Source of the DNA: an uncultured Chroococcidiopsis sp.
GTDB lineage: Bacteria; Cyanobacteriota; Cyanobacteriia; Cyanobacteriales; Chroococcidiopsidaceae
Length of the DNA: 64,000 bases
NCBI GenBank assembly: GCA_964248365.1
Contig: CAXTYC010000008.1
Span: 64,001 to 128,000, forward strand
Direction: 5' to 3'
How positions within the stretch are numbered: position 1 is the stretch's first letter; each line of letters starts with the position of its first letter. The translations under genes and the position numbers were made by a program. The notes under the pieces were generated by a model, which saw nothing but the letters and a program-made list of their open reading frames with translations, made no database searches and was not told where the DNA came from. Shown here one piece after another: positions 48,499 to 62,392 of this stretch.

Positions 48499-48833
48499 TT
48501 AAATTGGTAAACGATTAATATCTTTGTTGCAGCCCATTACCAGCATAGCTGAACCTTTTTCTTGGCGCTTTCTGGGGTCAGGATTAATTTCAAACTTGCG
48601 ATCGTGACTCACCGCCTGCAAGTTCAAACCATAGCGATTACGCAGTTGCACACTGATAGTTTTGCCGTGAAATTCGTCTGGGACAATGATTTCGACAATT
48701 CTATGATCTGGGTCGAGGTCAAATCGATCTAGGATAGATGGCTTGGTGAGCGATCGCGCTAGCGCACAACCCGCCTCATACTCTGGAAAAACAACGCGCT
48801 CGGTTCCCACTCTTGTCAACAGCTTGCAGTGGA
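48499..48833 (-). pseudogene. ktrA: KtrA/TrkA C-terminal fragment
   Basis: HCKLLTRVGTERVVFPEYEAG plus RCK_C-like tail; NAD-binding N-terminus missing. Confidence 0.8.
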
Positions 48834-53982: not shown

Positions 53983-54423
53983 ATGTTTAAATCTATAAGT
54001 AAAAAAATGGATGATAATAAAACACGTCACACATTGCTACTAATTCTATTAATTATCAATGTAATTTCCACTAGTCTTCACTACACGGATAATTTTCTGA
54101 ACAATGACAAATATCCAGAACCTGCTTGGCTCACTCCTAATAGTGTTTATATTAGCTGGATCATACTGACATTGTTTGGAGTGGCAGGTTACTTGTTGTA
54201 TGTAAAGGATGCTTTCTGGCTTACTTATTTCTGCCTTGCTATTTATTCAATTACTGGCATTTCAAGTACAGCGCATTACTTTTTTCCCGCTACCGAACCA
54301 TTTTCTTTGAAAATGAATGTGTTGATTTGGTTTGATGCGATCGCAGGTATTTCCCTACTCATTTTTATCTTATGGTCAGGATTAATATTAAGAGAGTGGG
54401 AAAGTGCGATCGCCGATCAATAA
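53983..54423 (+). CDS. Hypothetical 4-TM membrane protein
   Basis: Four hydrophobic segments with polar HYTDN and AHY residues. Confidence 0.75.
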   Translation: MFKSISKKMDDNKTRHTLLLILLIINVISTSLHYTDNFLNNDKYPEPAWLTPNSVYISWIILTLFGVAGYLLYVKDAFWLTYFCLAIYSITGISSTAHYFFPATEPFSLKMNVLIWFDAIAGISLLIFILWSGLILREWESAIADQ

Positions 54424-54424
54424 T

Positions 54425-56962
54425 CTATTCAATTCGTACAAATTTACCACCTTGAATTTTAATTACTGCATCATTTTGTGCGAGAGACACTCTTTCTCCT
54501 GTACCGCTATCGAACCTAAATTTTCCAGTTGCACCATTAACTTCAAATTTAGGGTTTCTGAGTAAACTGTTTATCTCTTGACGATTTGGCTGTCGTAGTT
54601 GCTCTAAAGCAGTTGCGATCGCCTTTGTTGCATCATAAGCCATAGGCGATCGCCAGGTAATTGTTTTTGGATGCCAACTCGACTGAAACTTGCTGACAAA
54701 AGAATTTTTCTCTGCATTCGGATACCAGGGAACTGATAATGTTAAACCTTCTACTGCTTTCCCGCCTAACTCAATTGTTTTATTTGTATTTAGAGTAGGG
54801 CTACCAAACAGCCTCACTTGTAACTTATTGGAGCGCACTGCTTTGAATATTTCTGTTGCCTTGGCAATTCTATCGACATGAGGTGACATCAGCAAGGCAT
54901 TAACACTGTTCTTTTTAATTTCCGCTACTACACTACTAGGTTTGAAATTTGGGTTGGAAAAGTCACAGTGTAAATCTATTGACTGTCCTTTATCGGCTCT
55001 GAAAACTTGCTCAAATTGGTTTTTAAAGAATTCATTATCTGGTGCATCAGGATCTAAACAAATGCCAACTTTGGGATTAGGGACTTGATGGCGAATAAAA
55101 TTTGATAGCTTCGCTGCAAAATAAGTAATCTGGGGAACCATCCTAAAAATATACGGCTTGTCTTGCAATTTGTCAGAAAAACTAGTCGGCGATATCATTA
55201 CTAGTTCTCTTTGGTTATATATGTCAGCAGCAGCAACCGAGGCATTCGAGGCATTATGCCCAACTACGGCTAAAATTGTGGTGTCTTTGACAAATTTATC
55301 AGCAACTTTTCGAGCCAGAACGTCGTTGTTATTGTCATTGGCAATTACTACTTGTAATAGCTTGCCATTGATTCCATCATCGTCTTTAATTTCCTCTTGA
55401 AGTTGAGAAACAGGCTGTAACATCTCTTCTGCTACAGGTTGATTGCTACCAATAGGTACGCTAACCGCAATTTTTAAAGGTTCTTCTTTTCGAGTTGCTG
55501 CTATTGCATTGTTTAAATAAATTCGTGTTTCTGAATCGTTAGGGTTACGCTTGAGAGCAGCTTTGAAATTAGCGATCGCATTTGAATAATCTTGCTGTGC
55601 AAATGCTTTCACACCTGCTTCTTTCTCAGGGCTACTATTTTTAAATAGAACTTCTTCCCCCAAACTAATTCCAGGTGCAGATTCCGCCGCCCGATGAAAT
55701 AAAGAATTATATATCCAGTAGGCAGCAGGTATTGATAGCACGGCAGCTGATAATATGATTAATAGCTTTACTTTTTGTGCAGTTGCAGGATTTGGCAATG
55801 ATTTAGTTGCTTTTGCTACTGGCTGCTGTGAAGGTTTTGCTTGAGGATAAAATAGCCCCTGTTCTTCGGGATTTTGGAAAAGCACAGGTAGCCAAGAGGC
55901 GTTAGGGGAGCGATTTTCGATTAACCTGAGCTTGTCACGGGCTTCACGCACTGCTTGATGTAAAGAAGCACCACCAGCAAAACAGGTGAGAAAATCATCT
56001 AAAAATTTTTGGGCGACGTTATCGTGAATCGGCTGCCGCATTACGATAACATGAGGAATCTGTAAAGAAGCTAGTTGTCGTGCCAATCCTAACCCATCAC
56101 AAGAGTTAAAAATTGCCAGTTTCAAACCATTTTCTACCGCTGTTTCTAGAGCAGTATTTAGTTGTTTAGGGGATAAATATTCTTGGTCATTGATCCAAAT
56201 TCGTGCATTGTTACCTGCTGGTTCAGTTGCACTATGTCCGGCAAAGAAAACAATATCCCAAGGCTGACTCCTCAGTTTTTCTCTTAGCTCAGTTGCTCTA
56301 GGTTTTCGTAGCAGAACTAATTCGGCGAGTGGTAAATTCTTCTGGATAATGTTCCAGTCTGTTTCAATATCAATATGTTCATCGCTACCCAGAATTACTA
56401 GAAGTTTGACAGGTTCGCTCAGAGATCCTCTTGGTGGTACTCTAATGCTGCTCAGAGCAACTTCGGCATAACGATAGCGCTTTCTAAGTAACCCCCATAA
56501 CTCCCAAGGTATTTTTTGTAATTCTGAGTTTTCAGTTTCTATAATGAAGCTGACAGAATCATTTTTGCCCACTGTATGTAGCAATTCATCTCGTATATCC
56601 TTAATGGCAGAACGATCTAACCAGTCATTTAGGGCAAGCTCAAACTTGGGAGCAATTTTACTAGTATTATCCTCACTATCTCCACTTGAATAATTTTTGA
56701 TTATTTGGTTTGGAACACTAATTTGCCGAGTACTTTCCCGCCACCAGCGGCAGCTTTCTCCCCAAGATATGTGTTCTTCTAGCCAGTCATTCAAAAGTTT
56801 GACTATTTCTGGTGCTGGTGACAAACTACCCTTAACTTCTGAAACACAAAGCCGACCATTTTCTCTAATTTGTAATCTGACAGGAAAACCATTCTCAAAA
56901 TCACCGCCTCCAATTTGAAAAACAACTTGCTTGCTCCTTTCTACTAAGTTTTGGGCATTCAT
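54425..56962 (-). CDS. CHAT (caspase-like) protease - TM - TPR - type I periplasmic binding domain fusion
   Basis: IPWELW, VFFAGHS (His), IFNSCDG (Cys), SWLPVLFQN; TM LLIILSAAVLSIPAAYWIY; PNDSETRIYLNNA; LivK-like AVVGHNAS, MISPTS, AYDA. Confidence 0.88.
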   Translation of the reverse strand: MNAQNLVERSKQVVFQIGGGDFENGFPVRLQIRENGRLCVSEVKGSLSPAPEIVKLLNDWLEEHISWGESCRWWRESTRQISVPNQIIKNYSSGDSEDNTSKIAPKFELALNDWLDRSAIKDIRDELLHTVGKNDSVSFIIETENSELQKIPWELWGLLRKRYRYAEVALSSIRVPPRGSLSEPVKLLVILGSDEHIDIETDWNIIQKNLPLAELVLLRKPRATELREKLRSQPWDIVFFAGHSATEPAGNNARIWINDQEYLSPKQLNTALETAVENGLKLAIFNSCDGLGLARQLASLQIPHVIVMRQPIHDNVAQKFLDDFLTCFAGGASLHQAVREARDKLRLIENRSPNASWLPVLFQNPEEQGLFYPQAKPSQQPVAKATKSLPNPATAQKVKLLIILSAAVLSIPAAYWIYNSLFHRAAESAPGISLGEEVLFKNSSPEKEAGVKAFAQQDYSNAIANFKAALKRNPNDSETRIYLNNAIAATRKEEPLKIAVSVPIGSNQPVAEEMLQPVSQLQEEIKDDDGINGKLLQVVIANDNNNDVLARKVADKFVKDTTILAVVGHNASNASVAAADIYNQRELVMISPTSFSDKLQDKPYIFRMVPQITYFAAKLSNFIRHQVPNPKVGICLDPDAPDNEFFKNQFEQVFRADKGQSIDLHCDFSNPNFKPSSVVAEIKKNSVNALLMSPHVDRIAKATEIFKAVRSNKLQVRLFGSPTLNTNKTIELGGKAVEGLTLSVPWYPNAEKNSFVSKFQSSWHPKTITWRSPMAYDATKAIATALEQLRQPNRQEINSLLRNPKFEVNGATGKFRFDSGTGERVSLAQNDAVIKIQGGKFVRIE

Positions 56963-57066
56963 ATATGTCTTCCTTGGGGCGGTATAATCTTAAAATTTAA
57001 GTCAAAAAGAAGGAGCATAAATGAAAACTCAATAATTCTTTAACTGCTAGTTTCCACTAGCTAAAA

Positions 57067-58428
57067 TTAAACTATAAAGTATTCGGTAATACTTGAAGAA
57101 GCCAGAACAAGACGAACACCAAAGCGATCGCCCACGTCAGCTCTAAAATAAAGAGAAATGTAATCGTCTTGTGGCTCATTTCTCGCTACAGCTTCCAACC
57201 CAGAAATGCTTGCGCCATTTTCATTTACTCCTAGTAATTGCAAAAGGGGTGGTAATTTAGTTTGGCTACCTGTAGGATAAGCTCTTAGCAACACGCCAAT
57301 TCGACTATCTGGTTTACGTAAAACTGCTACCATCAAAGCAACAGGATACCCCATTAGTTGAATTCCTAAATCCATCACTCTTCTAATAGCAGCATCGGGA
57401 TGATGGGGATTGATCGCCCACAAATATTCAGCCGCCTGCCAACAAGTGGTATCATCTTCAGTTGTCTGCATTAGATGAACTAAGGCGGATTCTGGTTCAA
57501 AATTGGCAGGGAGAGCAACCATGTTTTGACTACTATACAACTGCGCGATCGCTCGTTTCACCAATTCTTGTGTATCCAATCTAATTCCTCTGACTTTTTT
57601 CGAGCGAACTGCTGGAGTTAGAGTCTTTGCATTCAACCAATTTTCGATTGTCTGCCAACCAGCTTCAACTACACCATCAAACCAAGCTCCCAGCCGCACT
57701 AATTGCGGTTGAACTCGTTCCATGCGCCGCTGGTATAATTTTTGTAACCATACTTGCCGATCTAGTAATGCTCCCCACTGCTCAAACTTCACTTCTAGCC
57801 TGGGAGAATAGGACGATGGTTGGCTCAGTTGCTCAATTAAAGCTTTAGCATCATCATTTGACAACGAAGTTAATAAGGCTACTTCTCCTTTTTCATCAGG
57901 ATAATCGAGTGCAACCCACAGCAAATCTAAGTTTGCAATTACGGCATCTTGCTCTACATAATAAGTATTCGCTGTCGCGTCATACTCACCTTTAGCTTTC
58001 AAACTGCGGCGAGAAACAAAGCCCCAAATATGCAGGTATTTCTCAGTAAGATCGAATTGTACGGGTAAATAATAATCTGCTGCCCAACTGGGTATATCTA
58101 CCCATTCTTGAGGTACAGCAAAATCCTCGGTGTCTATAGCATCACTGGGAATCAGCACTAGTCGCTTTTGCTCTAGCTCAATTGCTATACCATTTACTAC
58201 TTCCCAAGCGATTTCACCTGGAAACAAAGTGAAATTAGCGGATAAACCGAAATCCTGTATCAATTTTACCAACAAATTAAAACACAAACGAGCAATTTTG
58301 GCATGATTGCGTCCAGTTTGGTTAGAGTAACTTCTGGTTGCAGCTTCAGCGATTTGCAAATCGCTGTCGGAAAATTCTAACCAAATGTGTTCAGAATAAA
58401 TTTTGCGTAATATTTCTATCGACTTCAT
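57067..58428 (-). CDS. DUF1822 family protein
   Basis: WEVVNG, LVLIPS, VPQEWVDIPSWAADYYLPVQ, IWGF; C-terminal LRAYP...GDRFGVRL...EYFIV. Confidence 0.85.
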   Translation of the reverse strand: MKSIEILRKIYSEHIWLEFSDSDLQIAEAATRSYSNQTGRNHAKIARLCFNLLVKLIQDFGLSANFTLFPGEIAWEVVNGIAIELEQKRLVLIPSDAIDTEDFAVPQEWVDIPSWAADYYLPVQFDLTEKYLHIWGFVSRRSLKAKGEYDATANTYYVEQDAVIANLDLLWVALDYPDEKGEVALLTSLSNDDAKALIEQLSQPSSYSPRLEVKFEQWGALLDRQVWLQKLYQRRMERVQPQLVRLGAWFDGVVEAGWQTIENWLNAKTLTPAVRSKKVRGIRLDTQELVKRAIAQLYSSQNMVALPANFEPESALVHLMQTTEDDTTCWQAAEYLWAINPHHPDAAIRRVMDLGIQLMGYPVALMVAVLRKPDSRIGVLLRAYPTGSQTKLPPLLQLLGVNENGASISGLEAVARNEPQDDYISLYFRADVGDRFGVRLVLASSSITEYFIV

Positions 58429-58440
58429 TGTATTTCCTGT

Positions 58441-59829
58441 TTAATCCAAATGTTGACTGAAAGAATGCATTCCAGATTCGTTTAACCTTTGTTCTACCAA
58501 CATAGGAATTTTGGCGATCGCACATCCTTGTTGATCTAGTTTTAATTCAATGTGTTGCTCAATTTGTCTTGTTAGGCGATCGCACAAATAAACGAGCGGT
58601 TCCCAAGGTGCAATTCGCATTTGTGGTAGTGAGTCTATTGATGAATCCCAAAATTTATCTATGATTTCGCTGCAATAACTACCTAGCAATGATTCCATCT
58701 CTGATAAGCCTTCAGAACTCGGTTCAATATTTAGATTTTGTCTTACCCAATTCCAAATTTGAGGCAAGATTTTCTTGTATACCGATTGCAGATGACGACA
58801 GATTTGATATTGCTTTAATCCTAGTTCAGTGGCAACTTCATTTTGTGTTAATTCCAAACCATAGCTAAGAAAAAGAATTTGGTATTTTTGCACTGGCTGA
58901 ATTTTTAGTTCATTTATCAGGCGCTCTATCTCCTGCTTCAATTCACCTAATTCTTCTATATCCATGCTCGATTCTGAGGAAGGCATTACAAAACTAGCAT
59001 TTTCCTCACCGCGCTCAAGAGCAGCATCTAGAGAAGTAGTTTGTGGAGCTAATAATTCTCGAATTGCTGCTCCGATATTTTCTAGCCAAGTTTTGATCTG
59101 TTCTCCATTTATATTTTGTCCGTGTAATTGGTTGTAACGTTCAGCAATTTTCTGGTAATGTTCCACCAAAATATTATTTACCGCCAGATTGCTAGCATTT
59201 TTTACTTCTTGAAAACATTGCCAAGCCAGTAAATATTGAGATAATTGTAGCCCTCCGTAATTTGAATTTTGTATAGCTTCTTTTACTCGTTTGCGGCTGG
59301 CGCGTGCCACCAAAGCCAAGTTCGAGCGCCCCAAAGTTTCGATTTGGGTAATTTTTCTTACTTGGGTAAGTAAAAGATACTTAATTTTTTGCTCGGTAAA
59401 CTTCTTTAACGTGGGATACCAATAGACAATTTGAGAACGCCTAATATCGAACTTAGCCAAAAATTTTTCCGGCTCGATTGTAGCTTGATAACCTATGATA
59501 AATAAGTCAGAGAAACAATCAAACCGTAAATGATCGGGTAGTAGCCACATAATTTTGTTAGCTACTTTTTCACAGCTTCTTTGAAGAAAAGCAATCCAAT
59601 GTCTACGGCATAATTCATCGGGGGGATGCTGCTGTAACTGCTCGAATAAATATCGAGCTAGTAATGCTTCTAGTCTCTGTTCATCTAATTGTGCTGATGG
59701 ATCTATTTGAGTAGCGCAACGATTAATATGCTGTAATAACTGTTGGTCAACTCGCCAGATAATGCGACGATTTTCTATGCTGCTGGGTATGGTATAAAAG
59801 CACTCAAGGGGCATGGCGTGTGTAATCAA
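58441..59829 (-). CDS. Sigma-70-like (region 4 HTH) protein, HetZ-related type
   Basis: SLDA motif then ILFLSYGLELTQNEVATELGLKQYQICRHL HTH; adjacent to DUF1822. Confidence 0.72.
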   Translation of the reverse strand: MITHAMPLECFYTIPSSIENRRIIWRVDQQLLQHINRCATQIDPSAQLDEQRLEALLARYLFEQLQQHPPDELCRRHWIAFLQRSCEKVANKIMWLLPDHLRFDCFSDLFIIGYQATIEPEKFLAKFDIRRSQIVYWYPTLKKFTEQKIKYLLLTQVRKITQIETLGRSNLALVARASRKRVKEAIQNSNYGGLQLSQYLLAWQCFQEVKNASNLAVNNILVEHYQKIAERYNQLHGQNINGEQIKTWLENIGAAIRELLAPQTTSLDAALERGEENASFVMPSSESSMDIEELGELKQEIERLINELKIQPVQKYQILFLSYGLELTQNEVATELGLKQYQICRHLQSVYKKILPQIWNWVRQNLNIEPSSEGLSEMESLLGSYCSEIIDKFWDSSIDSLPQMRIAPWEPLVYLCDRLTRQIEQHIELKLDQQGCAIAKIPMLVEQRLNESGMHSFSQHLD

Positions 59830-59842
59830 AGAGTGGAGTTAA

Positions 59843-61225
59843 TTAATCTGCCGTAGGGAGCTTGACAAATTCGTAAACAGAGCCTTTAGATTGAACTTGG
59901 ACAATCACAGGCTGACCGATGCGATCGCCACTAGGTGAAAATCTAACCGCAACACCAGCTCCCTCAACTGCAAACTGGGGACTTCGCAACACTTGCTCTA
60001 AACCATCACGAGTATTACTTTGCTGCAATCCTGCAATAATCGCTCTTGTTGCATCATAAGCCGTAGCCGAGCGCCAACTTACCTTACCGCGCCATCTTTG
60101 ACTCATCTTGTCTGCAAAAGAATTGCGCGGATTAGCTTGGGGATGCCAAGGTGCAGCTAGCACTAATCCTTCAACACTTTGCTGCCCAAGTTGTAAGGTT
60201 TTAATGGTATACATTGTCGGGCTGCTAAATAGAGCTAATTTGCCCTGATTTTGATTTGCTCTTGCAAGATCGATCCCAGCTTGTAAGCGATCGACATGAG
60301 GAGAGATAAATAACCCATCCGCACCACTGCTTACAGCTTGATTTACTGCCGTAAAAGCGTTAAAGTTAGGAGCAGATAAATCGCAAACGGTGGGGACTAA
60401 TTGACCTCCCTTTGACACAAAAGCTGCCTGAAATTCATCTTTGAATGAGACATTATCTGGGGCTTGGGAATCGTAACAAAAAGCAATTTTGGTTTTATGG
60501 GCAGTTTTAACTGTATAGTTGGCTAACGCTGTTGCTGTTACTTTGGTAGTGAGAACAGTCCGAAAAATATAATTACCAATTCCAGAGAGATTATTAGCAA
60601 AACTAGTAGGTGACACCATCACTAAACCCCCCTTTTGATAGATGGGAGCAGCCGCCAAAGATGCATCTGAGGCATTATGTCCTACAACTGCTAATACTTG
60701 CGAATCTTTAACTAATTGTTCGGCTACCTGACGGGCAATTTCAGGTTTATTTTCATCATTCACAATCTCTACAAGCAATTTTTGCCCATTGATTCCACCC
60801 TGCTGGTTAATTTCATCCTGCGCCTGGGCGACACCTCGAAGGATTTCTTGAGCAACATTGAGGTTACTGCCGATTGGTACGCTTACAGCTATTTTGAGAA
60901 AGCGATCGCCTACTTGGGCGTTATTTAAATAGATCAGTGTTTCGGGATCGTTAGGATACTGGAGGAGGGATTTTTTAAAATGTTCAATTGCCTCAGAGTG
61001 ATCGCCCCCCGCAAATGCTTCAATTCCCTTTTGTTTGTCTGGTGTAGCATCTTTTTGGATTAATAAGCGATTACCGATACTGACGCGATCGCTACTACTA
61101 AATCTGTCTTTGTTAACACTTTCGCGCAGTTTTGGAACTAAGAAAATCAATAACAATCCCAGGCAGATGTAGACAATCGGAGGTAGTCCACCTTTCTTAG
61201 TTTTTACATCATGTGGTTGCGACAT
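59843..61225 (-). CDS. Membrane-anchored TPR + LivK-like type I periplasmic binding protein
   Basis: N-terminal TM helix, PNDPETLIYLNNA, KIAVSVPIGSN, AVVGHNAS, AYDA; no ABC permease or ATPase nearby. Confidence 0.88.
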   Translation of the reverse strand: MSQPHDVKTKKGGLPPIVYICLGLLLIFLVPKLRESVNKDRFSSSDRVSIGNRLLIQKDATPDKQKGIEAFAGGDHSEAIEHFKKSLLQYPNDPETLIYLNNAQVGDRFLKIAVSVPIGSNLNVAQEILRGVAQAQDEINQQGGINGQKLLVEIVNDENKPEIARQVAEQLVKDSQVLAVVGHNASDASLAAAPIYQKGGLVMVSPTSFANNLSGIGNYIFRTVLTTKVTATALANYTVKTAHKTKIAFCYDSQAPDNVSFKDEFQAAFVSKGGQLVPTVCDLSAPNFNAFTAVNQAVSSGADGLFISPHVDRLQAGIDLARANQNQGKLALFSSPTMYTIKTLQLGQQSVEGLVLAAPWHPQANPRNSFADKMSQRWRGKVSWRSATAYDATRAIIAGLQQSNTRDGLEQVLRSPQFAVEGAGVAVRFSPSGDRIGQPVIVQVQSKGSVYEFVKLPTAD

Positions 61226-61286: not shown

Positions 61287-61409
61287 AGCCGCTCTCGAAA
61301 TTAATTTCCCAGCTTACAGCTAAAATCGATTGAAATCGGTTCAAGCCTTCCTGGTAGTCTACTTCAGTAGACTTCTGCTATGAGCCGTGAACTTAAGTTT
61401 ACGGCGGAT
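61287..61409. repeat. REP-doublet/MITE-like palindromic element
   Basis: Hairpins AGTCTACTTCAGTAGACT and CCGTGAACTTAAGTTTACGG, with degenerate mirror copies on the left. Confidence 0.6.
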
Positions 61410-61433: not shown

Positions 61434-62168
61434 CTAATTAGTATTTTTCAACTTGGCAAGACGACGGGAAATTTCATCATCAAGCGTCAAGCGTTCTAAA
61501 TCTGTTTGCAGCTTATCCGTGTGACTTTCAGATAGTTCTGCTTGAGCATTAACTTTCAAATATCTGCCTTCGATTGCTGCTTGTGCAGATTCAAATTGAT
61601 CGCTAGCTGCACTGAGGTTTAAACTACTATCAACTTTGGCAATTGTCGCTAAGGCTTCATTGATTTCTGATAAAGCCTTCAGATTTTGCATTTCTGTTTT
61701 ATAAGCCTCTACCTTTTCTCGTTCCCGATAGAGTTTTTCTTTAGCGGCAATTACTACTTTTTCAGCAGAGGCAACTTGTTCGGCAATTTTGGGTAGTAGC
61801 CGTTCAATTGCGATCGCCCGGCTCATTGACAATCTTGCTGCTTCTTCATTACCTTGTTCATAGGCAAGCCTTGCCCCATTTTCTGCCTGTTTCAACTCTT
61901 GAAGTTTGGCTGCGTATTTAGTTTGAGCTTTTTCATAAGCAGCTACTACTGTGGCGACAGATTCAGTAATTTTGGCGATCGATCTTTGCATCGATTCGAG
62001 AGATTCCTGCGCCACTTCTTGTGCAATTTTGCCTCCAGATTCGACTGGAATACCCCATAGCCAATTCCAGATCCCTACCAAAGTACGTCCAGATCTGTCC
62101 CCAATTAACCAATATATGACCAGTTTTAACTTACCTTCGCCAATTAACCAATAAATCAGTTGCTTCAT
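61434..62168 (-). CDS. PspA/IM30 family protein
   Basis: Long coiled coil, ARLAYEQGNEEAARLSM motif, C-terminal LDDEISRRLAKLK. Confidence 0.82.
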   Translation of the reverse strand: MKQLIYWLIGEGKLKLVIYWLIGDRSGRTLVGIWNWLWGIPVESGGKIAQEVAQESLESMQRSIAKITESVATVVAAYEKAQTKYAAKLQELKQAENGARLAYEQGNEEAARLSMSRAIAIERLLPKIAEQVASAEKVVIAAKEKLYREREKVEAYKTEMQNLKALSEINEALATIAKVDSSLNLSAASDQFESAQAAIEGRYLKVNAQAELSESHTDKLQTDLERLTLDDEISRRLAKLKNTN

Positions 62169-62392
62169 TTCTCACCACTTCCAACCCATCTGATTAAGTA
62201 TTGGGATGGAGTAAGAAAAAAATGCAGCCTGTTTCTGCCTGCGATTATTAACTTATATTAAATCCGGCTAAACACCCATAAATTCTATAGGGGCGGGTTT
62301 AATGATACATCTGGCTCGAAGACAAATTACCTAGTTAACCCGCCTCTACTAAACACTATTTTTACAGGTATTTCACCCTTCCAACCTTCATA

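Follow-up and report, generated by a model that had tools for sequence, protein, structure and literature searches.

We analysed a 64,000-nucleotide (nt) stretch of DNA from an uncultured Chroococcidiopsis sp. (the window; positions 64,001 to 128,000 of contig CAXTYC010000008.1, assembly GCA_964248365.1) and found on its minus strand a gene module that may act as a protease-gated alternative-sigma switch for membrane (envelope) stress. The module comprises a PspA/IM30-family gene, a divergent sigma factor gene (B), a DUF1822 gene (C) encoding a predicted anti-sigma factor, a gene for a membrane receptor-protease with a CHAT domain (D) and a protease-less paralogue of the outer part of D (A). 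We regard the whole chain as evenly balanced between right and wrong; that B and C form a sigma/anti-sigma pair, taken alone, is highly probable. The linkage itself is not new, because the trio of sigma, DUF1822 and caspase-sensor genes is in print (Kaur et al. 2021, PMC8195603); an earlier sequence-only reading of the locus was right that the linkage is real but overlooked that description. What is new here are the sigma2 and sigma4 folds of B, a predicted B-C complex, a candidate cleavage site at Arg275 of C, and a candidate private promoter with membrane targets. The features, in window coordinates and amino acids (aa), are:

62200..62226 (-): candidate promoter motif, with TGCAT as -35-like element (62226-62222), a 14-nt spacer and ATCCCAAT as -10-like element (62207-62200)
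61434..62168 (-): PspA/IM30-family gene, 244 aa, first gene after the motif
59843..61225 (-): gene A, 460 aa, N-terminally anchored TPR and LivK-type binding protein without a protease
58441..59829 (-): gene B, 462 aa from a TTG start, divergent sigma70-family factor
57067..58428 (-): gene C, 453 aa, DUF1822 protein, predicted anti-sigma factor
56963..57066 (-): gap of 104 nt before gene D, with a TATTAT/TATAAT-like hexamer in relatives
54425..56962 (-): gene D, 845 aa, N-terminal domain, CHAT, transmembrane helix, TPR and LivK-type binding domain

The coordinates of the open reading frames (ORFs) confirmed the four co-oriented genes A to D of the sequence-only reading, with gaps of 13 nt (A-B), 12 nt (B-C) and 104 nt (C-D), but that unit was incomplete. 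The unit includes the pspA/IM30 gene, which lies on the same strand 208 nt upstream of A and whose product matches PF04012 over the cut-off (E 2.7e-12), and the promoter-like motif, about 58 nt ahead of the pspA start. Relatives of gene B begin at an ATG five codons downstream of the TTG start called here.

A sigma factor and its predicted inhibitor

Profile searches alone gave B a faint identity. Its only Pfam match was a weak one to Sigma70_r4 (E 0.055), and its match to TIGR02937 (E 3e-10, 40.0 bits) fell narrowly under the cut-off of 42.9; a paralogue on another contig of the Chroococcidiopsis genome (C64), which passes TIGR02937 with 118 bits, shares 25% identity with B (E 2e-19). The AlphaFold2 model of B, with a predicted local distance difference test (pLDDT) score of 86, contains a sigma2 domain (residues about 6-164), a helical insert, a sigma4 domain (about 295-361) and the remnant of a second sigma4-like helix-turn-helix (HTH). 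Among the Foldseek matches listed, the first 42 were sigma factors or sigma-containing RNA polymerase complexes, and the model aligned with sigma factors across 300-370 columns. The sigma4 domain was matched with Z 8.4 (root-mean-square deviation, rmsd, 1.6 over 63 residues) and sigma2 with Z 7.1 (rmsd 3.0 over 96 residues), values that are middling for helical folds. The second HTH, which resembles the first with 96% probability, is present in 53 of 59 relatives of B, and 29 residues of it are gone from B and its two closest relatives. By its modelled fold, then, B is a sigma factor, which would form a holoenzyme with core RNA polymerase; its earlier description as a sigma70 region-4 HTH protein was correct for sigma4 but too narrow, as a sigma2 fold is also present.

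The assignment of C to DUF1822 was borne out by its match to PF08852 (E 1e-75). Its model consists of an N-terminal alpha/beta domain, a linker containing Arg275, a helical insert and a C-terminal beta-sandwich. The N-terminal domain weakly resembles PD-(D/E)XK nuclease folds (Z 5.6-7.3, the best with rmsd 3.9), and the C-terminal domain resembles an immunoglobulin-like sandwich, not TPRs. Fold searches with C turned up no solved DUF1822-like structure: Foldseek with the whole model returned only matches of low template-modelling score, no TRADD-N or TPR structure was among the matches listed, and an atlas search with residues 343-453 gave no usable match. In a family of small genomes (f43, G402-G500), a weak DUF1822 match occurs in 45 of 50 genomes; the eight matches listed cover only the N-terminal 150-260 profile positions and lie inside frames of 935-1313 aa, suggesting that the nuclease-like domain has been fused into a long protein.

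Complex prediction for B with C gave a score of 0.86, against 0.00 for the best of three controls; the mark for this score is reached by 116 of 157 solved pairs and 2 of 215 mismatched pairs, counts that are rough for the alignments used here. At least 86% of the contacts agreed between runs, with partner pLDDT of at least 82. The prediction thus supports the sigma/DUF1822 binding proposed in the sequence-only reading. In the predicted interface, residues 3-211 of C contact residues 93-101, 144-163, 176-214, 328-356 and 370-379 of B. Segments 144-163 and 340-356 probably correspond to the helices that recognise the -10 and -35 elements, an assignment drawn from the model of B, its fold matches and general knowledge of sigma70 factors. 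In the literature searched, to which subscription journals mostly did not belong, we found no experimental study of DUF1822 or of the sigma/DUF1822/CHAT trio; PMC9679502 has DUF1822 only in a mutation table.

A candidate private promoter motif before sigma and membrane genes

By aligning the DNA upstream of sigma and pspA genes, we found a bipartite motif, TGCAT-N14-VTCYCAAT. Twelve of the 13 close loci have it ahead of the sigma gene; in the 13th (L023), a transposase-like ORF precedes the sigma gene and the motif is absent there. It was found neither before six distant sigma genes nor before 13 pspA genes whose loci lack a close relative of B. When scored with a matrix derived from 19 sites in relatives, the window being excluded, the window site reached 37.3 and was the single match above 12 in the 5.58-Mb genome, and column-shuffled matrices gave at most 22.3. 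In the 10 genomes carrying relatives of B, a loose form of the pattern had 32 matches and its reversed control none. Twenty-three of these matches, distributed over all 10 genomes, fit the strict form and score above 40; the other nine score at most 9.3. The strict sites precede sigma genes (8), pspA genes (7, on other contigs in two genomes), membrane kinase genes (3) and, once each, genes for a subtilase, a DUF4359 protein, a TIGR04222-like membrane protein and an HTH protein. The remaining strict site lies before a small gene with two SPFH/flotillin genes behind it. The sequences flanking the motif are 22-37% alike. In 300 other sampled genomes of the class, none of which has a close relative of B (best 34%), the strict pattern had one match, inside an ORF, and its control two. 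In L013, L014, L016 and L019, an orthologue of the pspA gene (about 70%) comes after the trio, and the motif is kept even where pspA lies on other contigs. These data point to a bipartite, autoregulated promoter of the sigma factor of the module, which B itself would read. The combination of pspA with flotillins is the hallmark of membrane-stress control by Bacillus sigma-W, as described in the part of PMC8581546 available.

No copy of the motif was found in the 104-nt C-D gap (best score -21). The TATTAT/TATAAT-like hexamer there is kept in relatives, as seen in an alignment of 13 upstream regions (weak evidence), so that D may have a housekeeping promoter of its own. Generic scans of the sequence were at chance for both sigma70 promoters (27 versus 22.1) and terminators (10 versus 7.6). 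The pspA-A gap contains a 9-pair hairpin (61384-61405), which has no T run on the coding strand and is therefore perhaps a processing or stability element.

The receptor-protease and a candidate cleavage site

Pfam searches with D detected CHAT (E 3e-15), a weak TPR and Peripla_BP_6 (E 1e-26), in agreement with the earlier assignment of a CHAT protease joined by one membrane helix to a TPR and LivK-like part. The catalytic dyad consists of His243 (FAGHS, codon 56234-56236) and Cys288 (FNSCDG, codon 56099-56101). A single hydrophobic helix (residues 400-420) is flanked by three K/R before and one after it, which favours a cytoplasmic location of the protease side. Residues 1-130, before CHAT, are conserved in relatives (32-55%) and may, to judge by their position, be the EACC2 domain. 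Gene A, earlier read as an anchored TPR and periplasmic-binding protein, matches Peripla_BP_6 (PF13458, E 3e-43), its weak TPR match being below the cut-off, and is a paralogue of the outer part of D (45% identical to D 432-826, E 3e-99). Relatives of A directly follow a pspA gene in 13 of the 20 loci of its best relatives, and the pspA-A pair also stands beside other sigma/DUF1822 subtypes in six of these 20 and in L157.

The sigma/DUF1822/CHAT linkage proved to be conserved. In the Chroococcidiopsis genome, all six DUF1822 genes have a co-oriented ORF upstream, four of which match a sigma profile at E 0.01 or better (one over the cut-off), and five have a CHAT gene next to them. The sensors of these five CHAT copies are CHASE2 (three), nSTAND1 with WD40, and LivK-type, indicating that the sensor varies across paralogues. 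Gene C follows B in 18 of 19 loci of B relatives, and a CHAT-transmembrane-binding-protein gene comes next in all 12 of the 13 close loci (38-46%) that have room for one. Two of these receptor genes are split into two frames (L021:11078-13580 and L023:10926-13432), and five loci (L018, L020, L022, L024 and L025) have two or three in tandem, one copy resembling D in its outer domain by only 27-31% and the other by 54-59%; such tandem receptors may represent several inputs to one substrate. In a wider sample of 60 DUF1822 loci, spread over the ranks of some 150 matches listed, the upstream gene matches one of the six upstream ORFs of the Chroococcidiopsis genome in 55, and a CHAT gene lies directly downstream in 37, with the dyad intact in 36 and the remaining gene truncated; 21 loci have no CHAT gene in the 12-kb region. 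Similarity co-varied among 33 trios most strongly for sigma and DUF1822 (0.65), then for DUF1822 and CHAT (0.34) and least for sigma and CHAT (0.16), a ranking that is only suggestive because kin share ancestry. DUF1822 occurs in 89 of 151 sampled genomes of the phylum, with up to 11 matches per genome.

Variants of the arrangement were also seen. L143, L144 and L145 have DUF1822 and CHAT genes with no sigma-like gene directly upstream, and the pair of the 118-bit sigma70 gene and a DUF1822 gene (L007:1904-6353) has no CHAT gene behind it and a convergent gene for an EACC1-type caspase with WD40.

Arg275 of C (A-V-R|S, codon 57604-57606) is kept in 100 of 111 relatives and sits in the variable linker, the least confident part of the model (residues 271-273 below 50). 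Of 66 diverse DUF1822 proteins, 48 have a hydrophobic-Arg-small motif in this linker, whereas shuffling of the linkers gave an expectation of 18.2 and a maximum of 31 in 2000 shuffles (background windows 13%); the motif is kept in 26 of 34 DUF1822 clusters. Linker triplets with another central residue never came near this number, the best being Leu with 28 and a background of 30%. In PatU proteins, here the relatives of the ORF behind hetZ, taken as PatU, an Arg precedes the linker in 149 of 150, at a median of 142 residues from the protein end (98 rows), equal to the position of R117, after which HetF cuts the 258-residue PatU3 according to the parts of PMC9457339 and PMC13342950 available. 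By analogy, Arg275 is a candidate CHAT cut site, mirroring the HetF site in PatU3.

As for the surroundings, a convergent gene for a 146-aa membrane protein of no confident family (53983-54423) ends 1 nt from the stop of D, and a 106-aa ORF (48499-48819) presumably resembles a C-terminal fragment of a TrkA-type protein. Between 46 and 64 kb of the window, the ORFs read as metabolic genes, no search aimed at Cas genes having been made. The 6.8-kb locus has 10 HIP1 sites, as noted from the sequence earlier, but we rejected them as proof of long residence, since their density (1.47/kb) is not above that of the genome (1.0/kb, P 0.15); it fits a cyanobacterial origin.

Related systems, alternatives and meaning

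The locus is, with EACC2 assigned by position, a member of the EACC2-caspase neighbourhoods catalogued in 2021 in eLife (PMC8195603). As in the accessible part of that account, a constant N-terminal domain and caspase are combined with a variable C-terminal small-molecule sensor and a transmembrane segment, next to an extracytoplasmic function (ECF) sigma gene and a DUF1822 gene, a pair encoded by most such neighbourhoods that lack TRADD-N. The same part differs in calling DUF1822 a TPR protein, names no substrate, site, promoter or regulon, and has neither pspA nor the protease-less paralogue A in its account of the trio.

The HetF/PatU3/sigma-HetZ system of Anabaena PCC 7120 shows further likeness, as far as the available portions of its reports go. 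There, a membrane CHAT protease cuts a soluble inhibitor after an Arg (PMC9457339), a cut that here is predicted, and PatU3, whose gene shares a transcript with that of an ECF-type sigma bearing insertions, inhibits this sigma (PMC13342950), as C is likewise predicted to do with B. However, the HetZ promoter is TCCGGA-N16-17-TGNA (DIF1; PMC13342950) and thus different from TGCAT-N14-VTCYCAAT; hetF is not described there as part of the hetZ-patU operon; the outer part of HetF consists of TPRs, not a LivK-type domain; and the output is heterocyst fate. All three parts of the present module have weak profile similarity to HetZ, PatU and HetF. The HetZ profile NF037963 did not match B at E 0.1 (best in the genome E 1e-25, under the cut-off), and the HetF profile NF045509 matched D with E 1e-5 and 24 bits against a cut-off of 1200; by these cut-offs the locus is not a member of the HetZ and HetF families, and it is in its proposed way of working that it is like them. 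PatU aligned with the C-terminal sandwich of DUF1822 with a score of 25.0 (E 0.011, 83 columns) versus 13-15 for reversed controls, and rank tests gave 33/70 versus 1/18 and 27/40 versus 4/19. Another of the tests for HetZ/sigma or PatU/DUF1822 homology beat its reversed control (30.1 versus 17.1). When profiles from the first alignments were compared directly, neither pair reached significance (HetZ-B E 0.24, PatU-C E 0.1). HetZ matched the second sigma4-like HTH weakly (E 0.007-0.04), and an atlas feature match of 0.80 bearing on PatU homology, absent among the structure rows, is a lead only. Elsewhere in the genome, a HetF-like CHAT+FHA gene (L012:4044-6367, G000:C3:152043-154366; NF045509 E 4e-50, below the cut-off) is directly followed by a gene for a 214-aa protein with weak likeness to the middle region of PatU (E 0.007; rank 2 in another comparison); flanked by PP2C phosphatase and PrsW+FHA genes, the two are possibly another protease/substrate pair.

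Three other systems share parts of the design, according to the available sections of their reports. In type III-E CASP, the CHAT protease Csx29 regulates transcription by cleaving Csx30, a sigma inhibitor, at a flexible site set apart from the N-terminal domain of Csx30, but it responds to target RNA on Cas7-11 and not to a membrane receptor (PMC10028731). DdvA/DdvS of Myxococcus xanthus is, as here, a signalling unit composed of CHAT, one transmembrane helix and an ECF sigma, but its CHAT lies in the periplasm, lacks a complete active site and belongs to the anti-sigma protein (PMC11506125). Sigma-W of Bacillus subtilis, an ECF sigma driving pspA and flotillin genes under membrane stress, has like outputs (PMC8581546), but is freed by intramembrane proteolysis of the membrane anti-sigma RsiW, with unrelated trigger proteins.

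We propose the following sequence of events only conditionally. At rest, C would hold B by covering the ends of sigma2 and the recognition helix of sigma4. When a periplasmic cue reaches the LivK-type domain of D, the cytoplasmic CHAT would become active, and A would perhaps tune the response of D to the cue. The activated CHAT may then cut C after Arg275 in a Cys-dependent way, by the precedent of HetF and PatU3. Since the predicted interface (C 3-211) lies ahead of the predicted cut, the "one-step" character claimed for the switch in the sequence-only reading is doubtful, although its trio linkage, sigma fold and predicted sigma-DUF1822 binding stood. Release of sigma probably requires a second step, in which the sigma-bound N-terminal piece of C would be degraded, as the available part of PMC9457339 reports for the products of PatU3 after the HetF cut. 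B would then take RNA polymerase to TGCAT-N14-VTCYCAAT promoters, driving its own operon (positive feedback and re-synthesis of the inhibitor) and pspA-A; the targets in relatives would further include flotillins, a membrane kinase, a subtilase and additional membrane proteins.

Several points weigh against this proposal. The Arg motif was chosen after inspection of the sequences, C contains five other hydrophobic-Arg-small triplets, the motif is as frequent without CHAT within about 6 kb (18/22) as with an adjacent CHAT (28/42), and a cut at Arg275 would leave the predicted interface untouched. A matrix built from sigma-upstream sites alone ranks the window site fourth (16.6, top 20.9); 16 of the 23 strict sites lie in training loci and seven outside. 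The promoter motif occurs only once in the Chroococcidiopsis genome and is missing before the closest homologues there of the kinase, DUF4359, subtilase and HTH targets; the single site lies before pspA, and the rearranged order therefore places pspA-A-B-C behind one promoter. The PatU-DUF1822 and HetZ-B similarities are in the twilight zone, and a test with C-terminal profiles only failed its control (18.3 versus 18.0-18.9 reversed). The relatives are kin, so that the counts are not independent, the CHAT-less DUF1822 loci stand apart from the scheme, and cleavage, ligand, transcript start and RNA polymerase binding are steps that we infer.

The family-wide Arg site in a flexible linker of C bears directly on the model of Kaur et al., in which the sensor triggers self-cleavage of the EACC2-caspase in a counter-invader system, DUF1822 is an adaptor, sigma acts downstream and C is not a substrate. 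Autopeptidase activation is proposed in section 9 of PMC8195603, the portion available, and would suit the patchy distribution and shuffled gene order among relatives, the paralogues with nSTAND1/WD40 sensors and the hydrophobic-Arg-small sites of D itself, one of which (231) lies within CHAT. Given the site in C, a regulon of membrane repair rather than toxins, and a related HetF that cuts a separate anti-sigma-like protein after Arg (PMC9457339, as far as available), we consider that model unlikely here. It is distinctly unlikely that B and C are a true sigma/anti-sigma pair of which D is not the trigger, with another protease or signal freeing C and D co-inherited for other substrates. The 21 loci without a nearby CHAT gene, the weak sigma-CHAT co-variation and the apparently separate promoter of D would agree with this, but D-type genes follow C in all 12 close loci that have room, five times as two or three diverged tandem receptors, the dyad is almost always kept, and the several CHAT genes per genome could act in trans, as HetF does. 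That C is a chaperone or co-activator staying on or delivering B, with the Arg275 cut altering location or activity and not sigma release, is very unlikely, for although the predicted interface survives the predicted cut and the weakly PD-(D/E)XK-like domain might contact DNA, the predicted contacts cover the presumed -10/-35-reading helices, C is net acidic (-14), and PatU3 inhibits sigma-HetZ (PMC13342950, available part).

Beyond the protease-gated switch itself, it is possible, though on balance doubtful, that sigma/DUF1822/CHAT-receptor trios form a large, diversified family including the heterocyst HetZ/PatU/HetF circuit. Such a family would add a third class to bacterial transmembrane signalling: interchangeable receptor-caspases would cleave a soluble anti-sigma protein at a conserved Arg, and each sigma would read a private promoter. 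The present subtype would serve cyanobacteria as an ECF-type response to envelope stress that switches on PspA/IM30 and flotillins, and A would act in it as a feedback decoy or a co-receptor. The locus turns the vague prediction of 2021 into testable points, namely a predicted sigma/anti-sigma interface, R275, C288 and one promoter. If the proposal is true, it would name a regulator for the cyanobacterial PspA/flotillin membrane-stress response, show the heterocyst HetZ/PatU3/HetF circuit to be part of a wider family, and provide modular ligand-gated protease-to-transcription parts.

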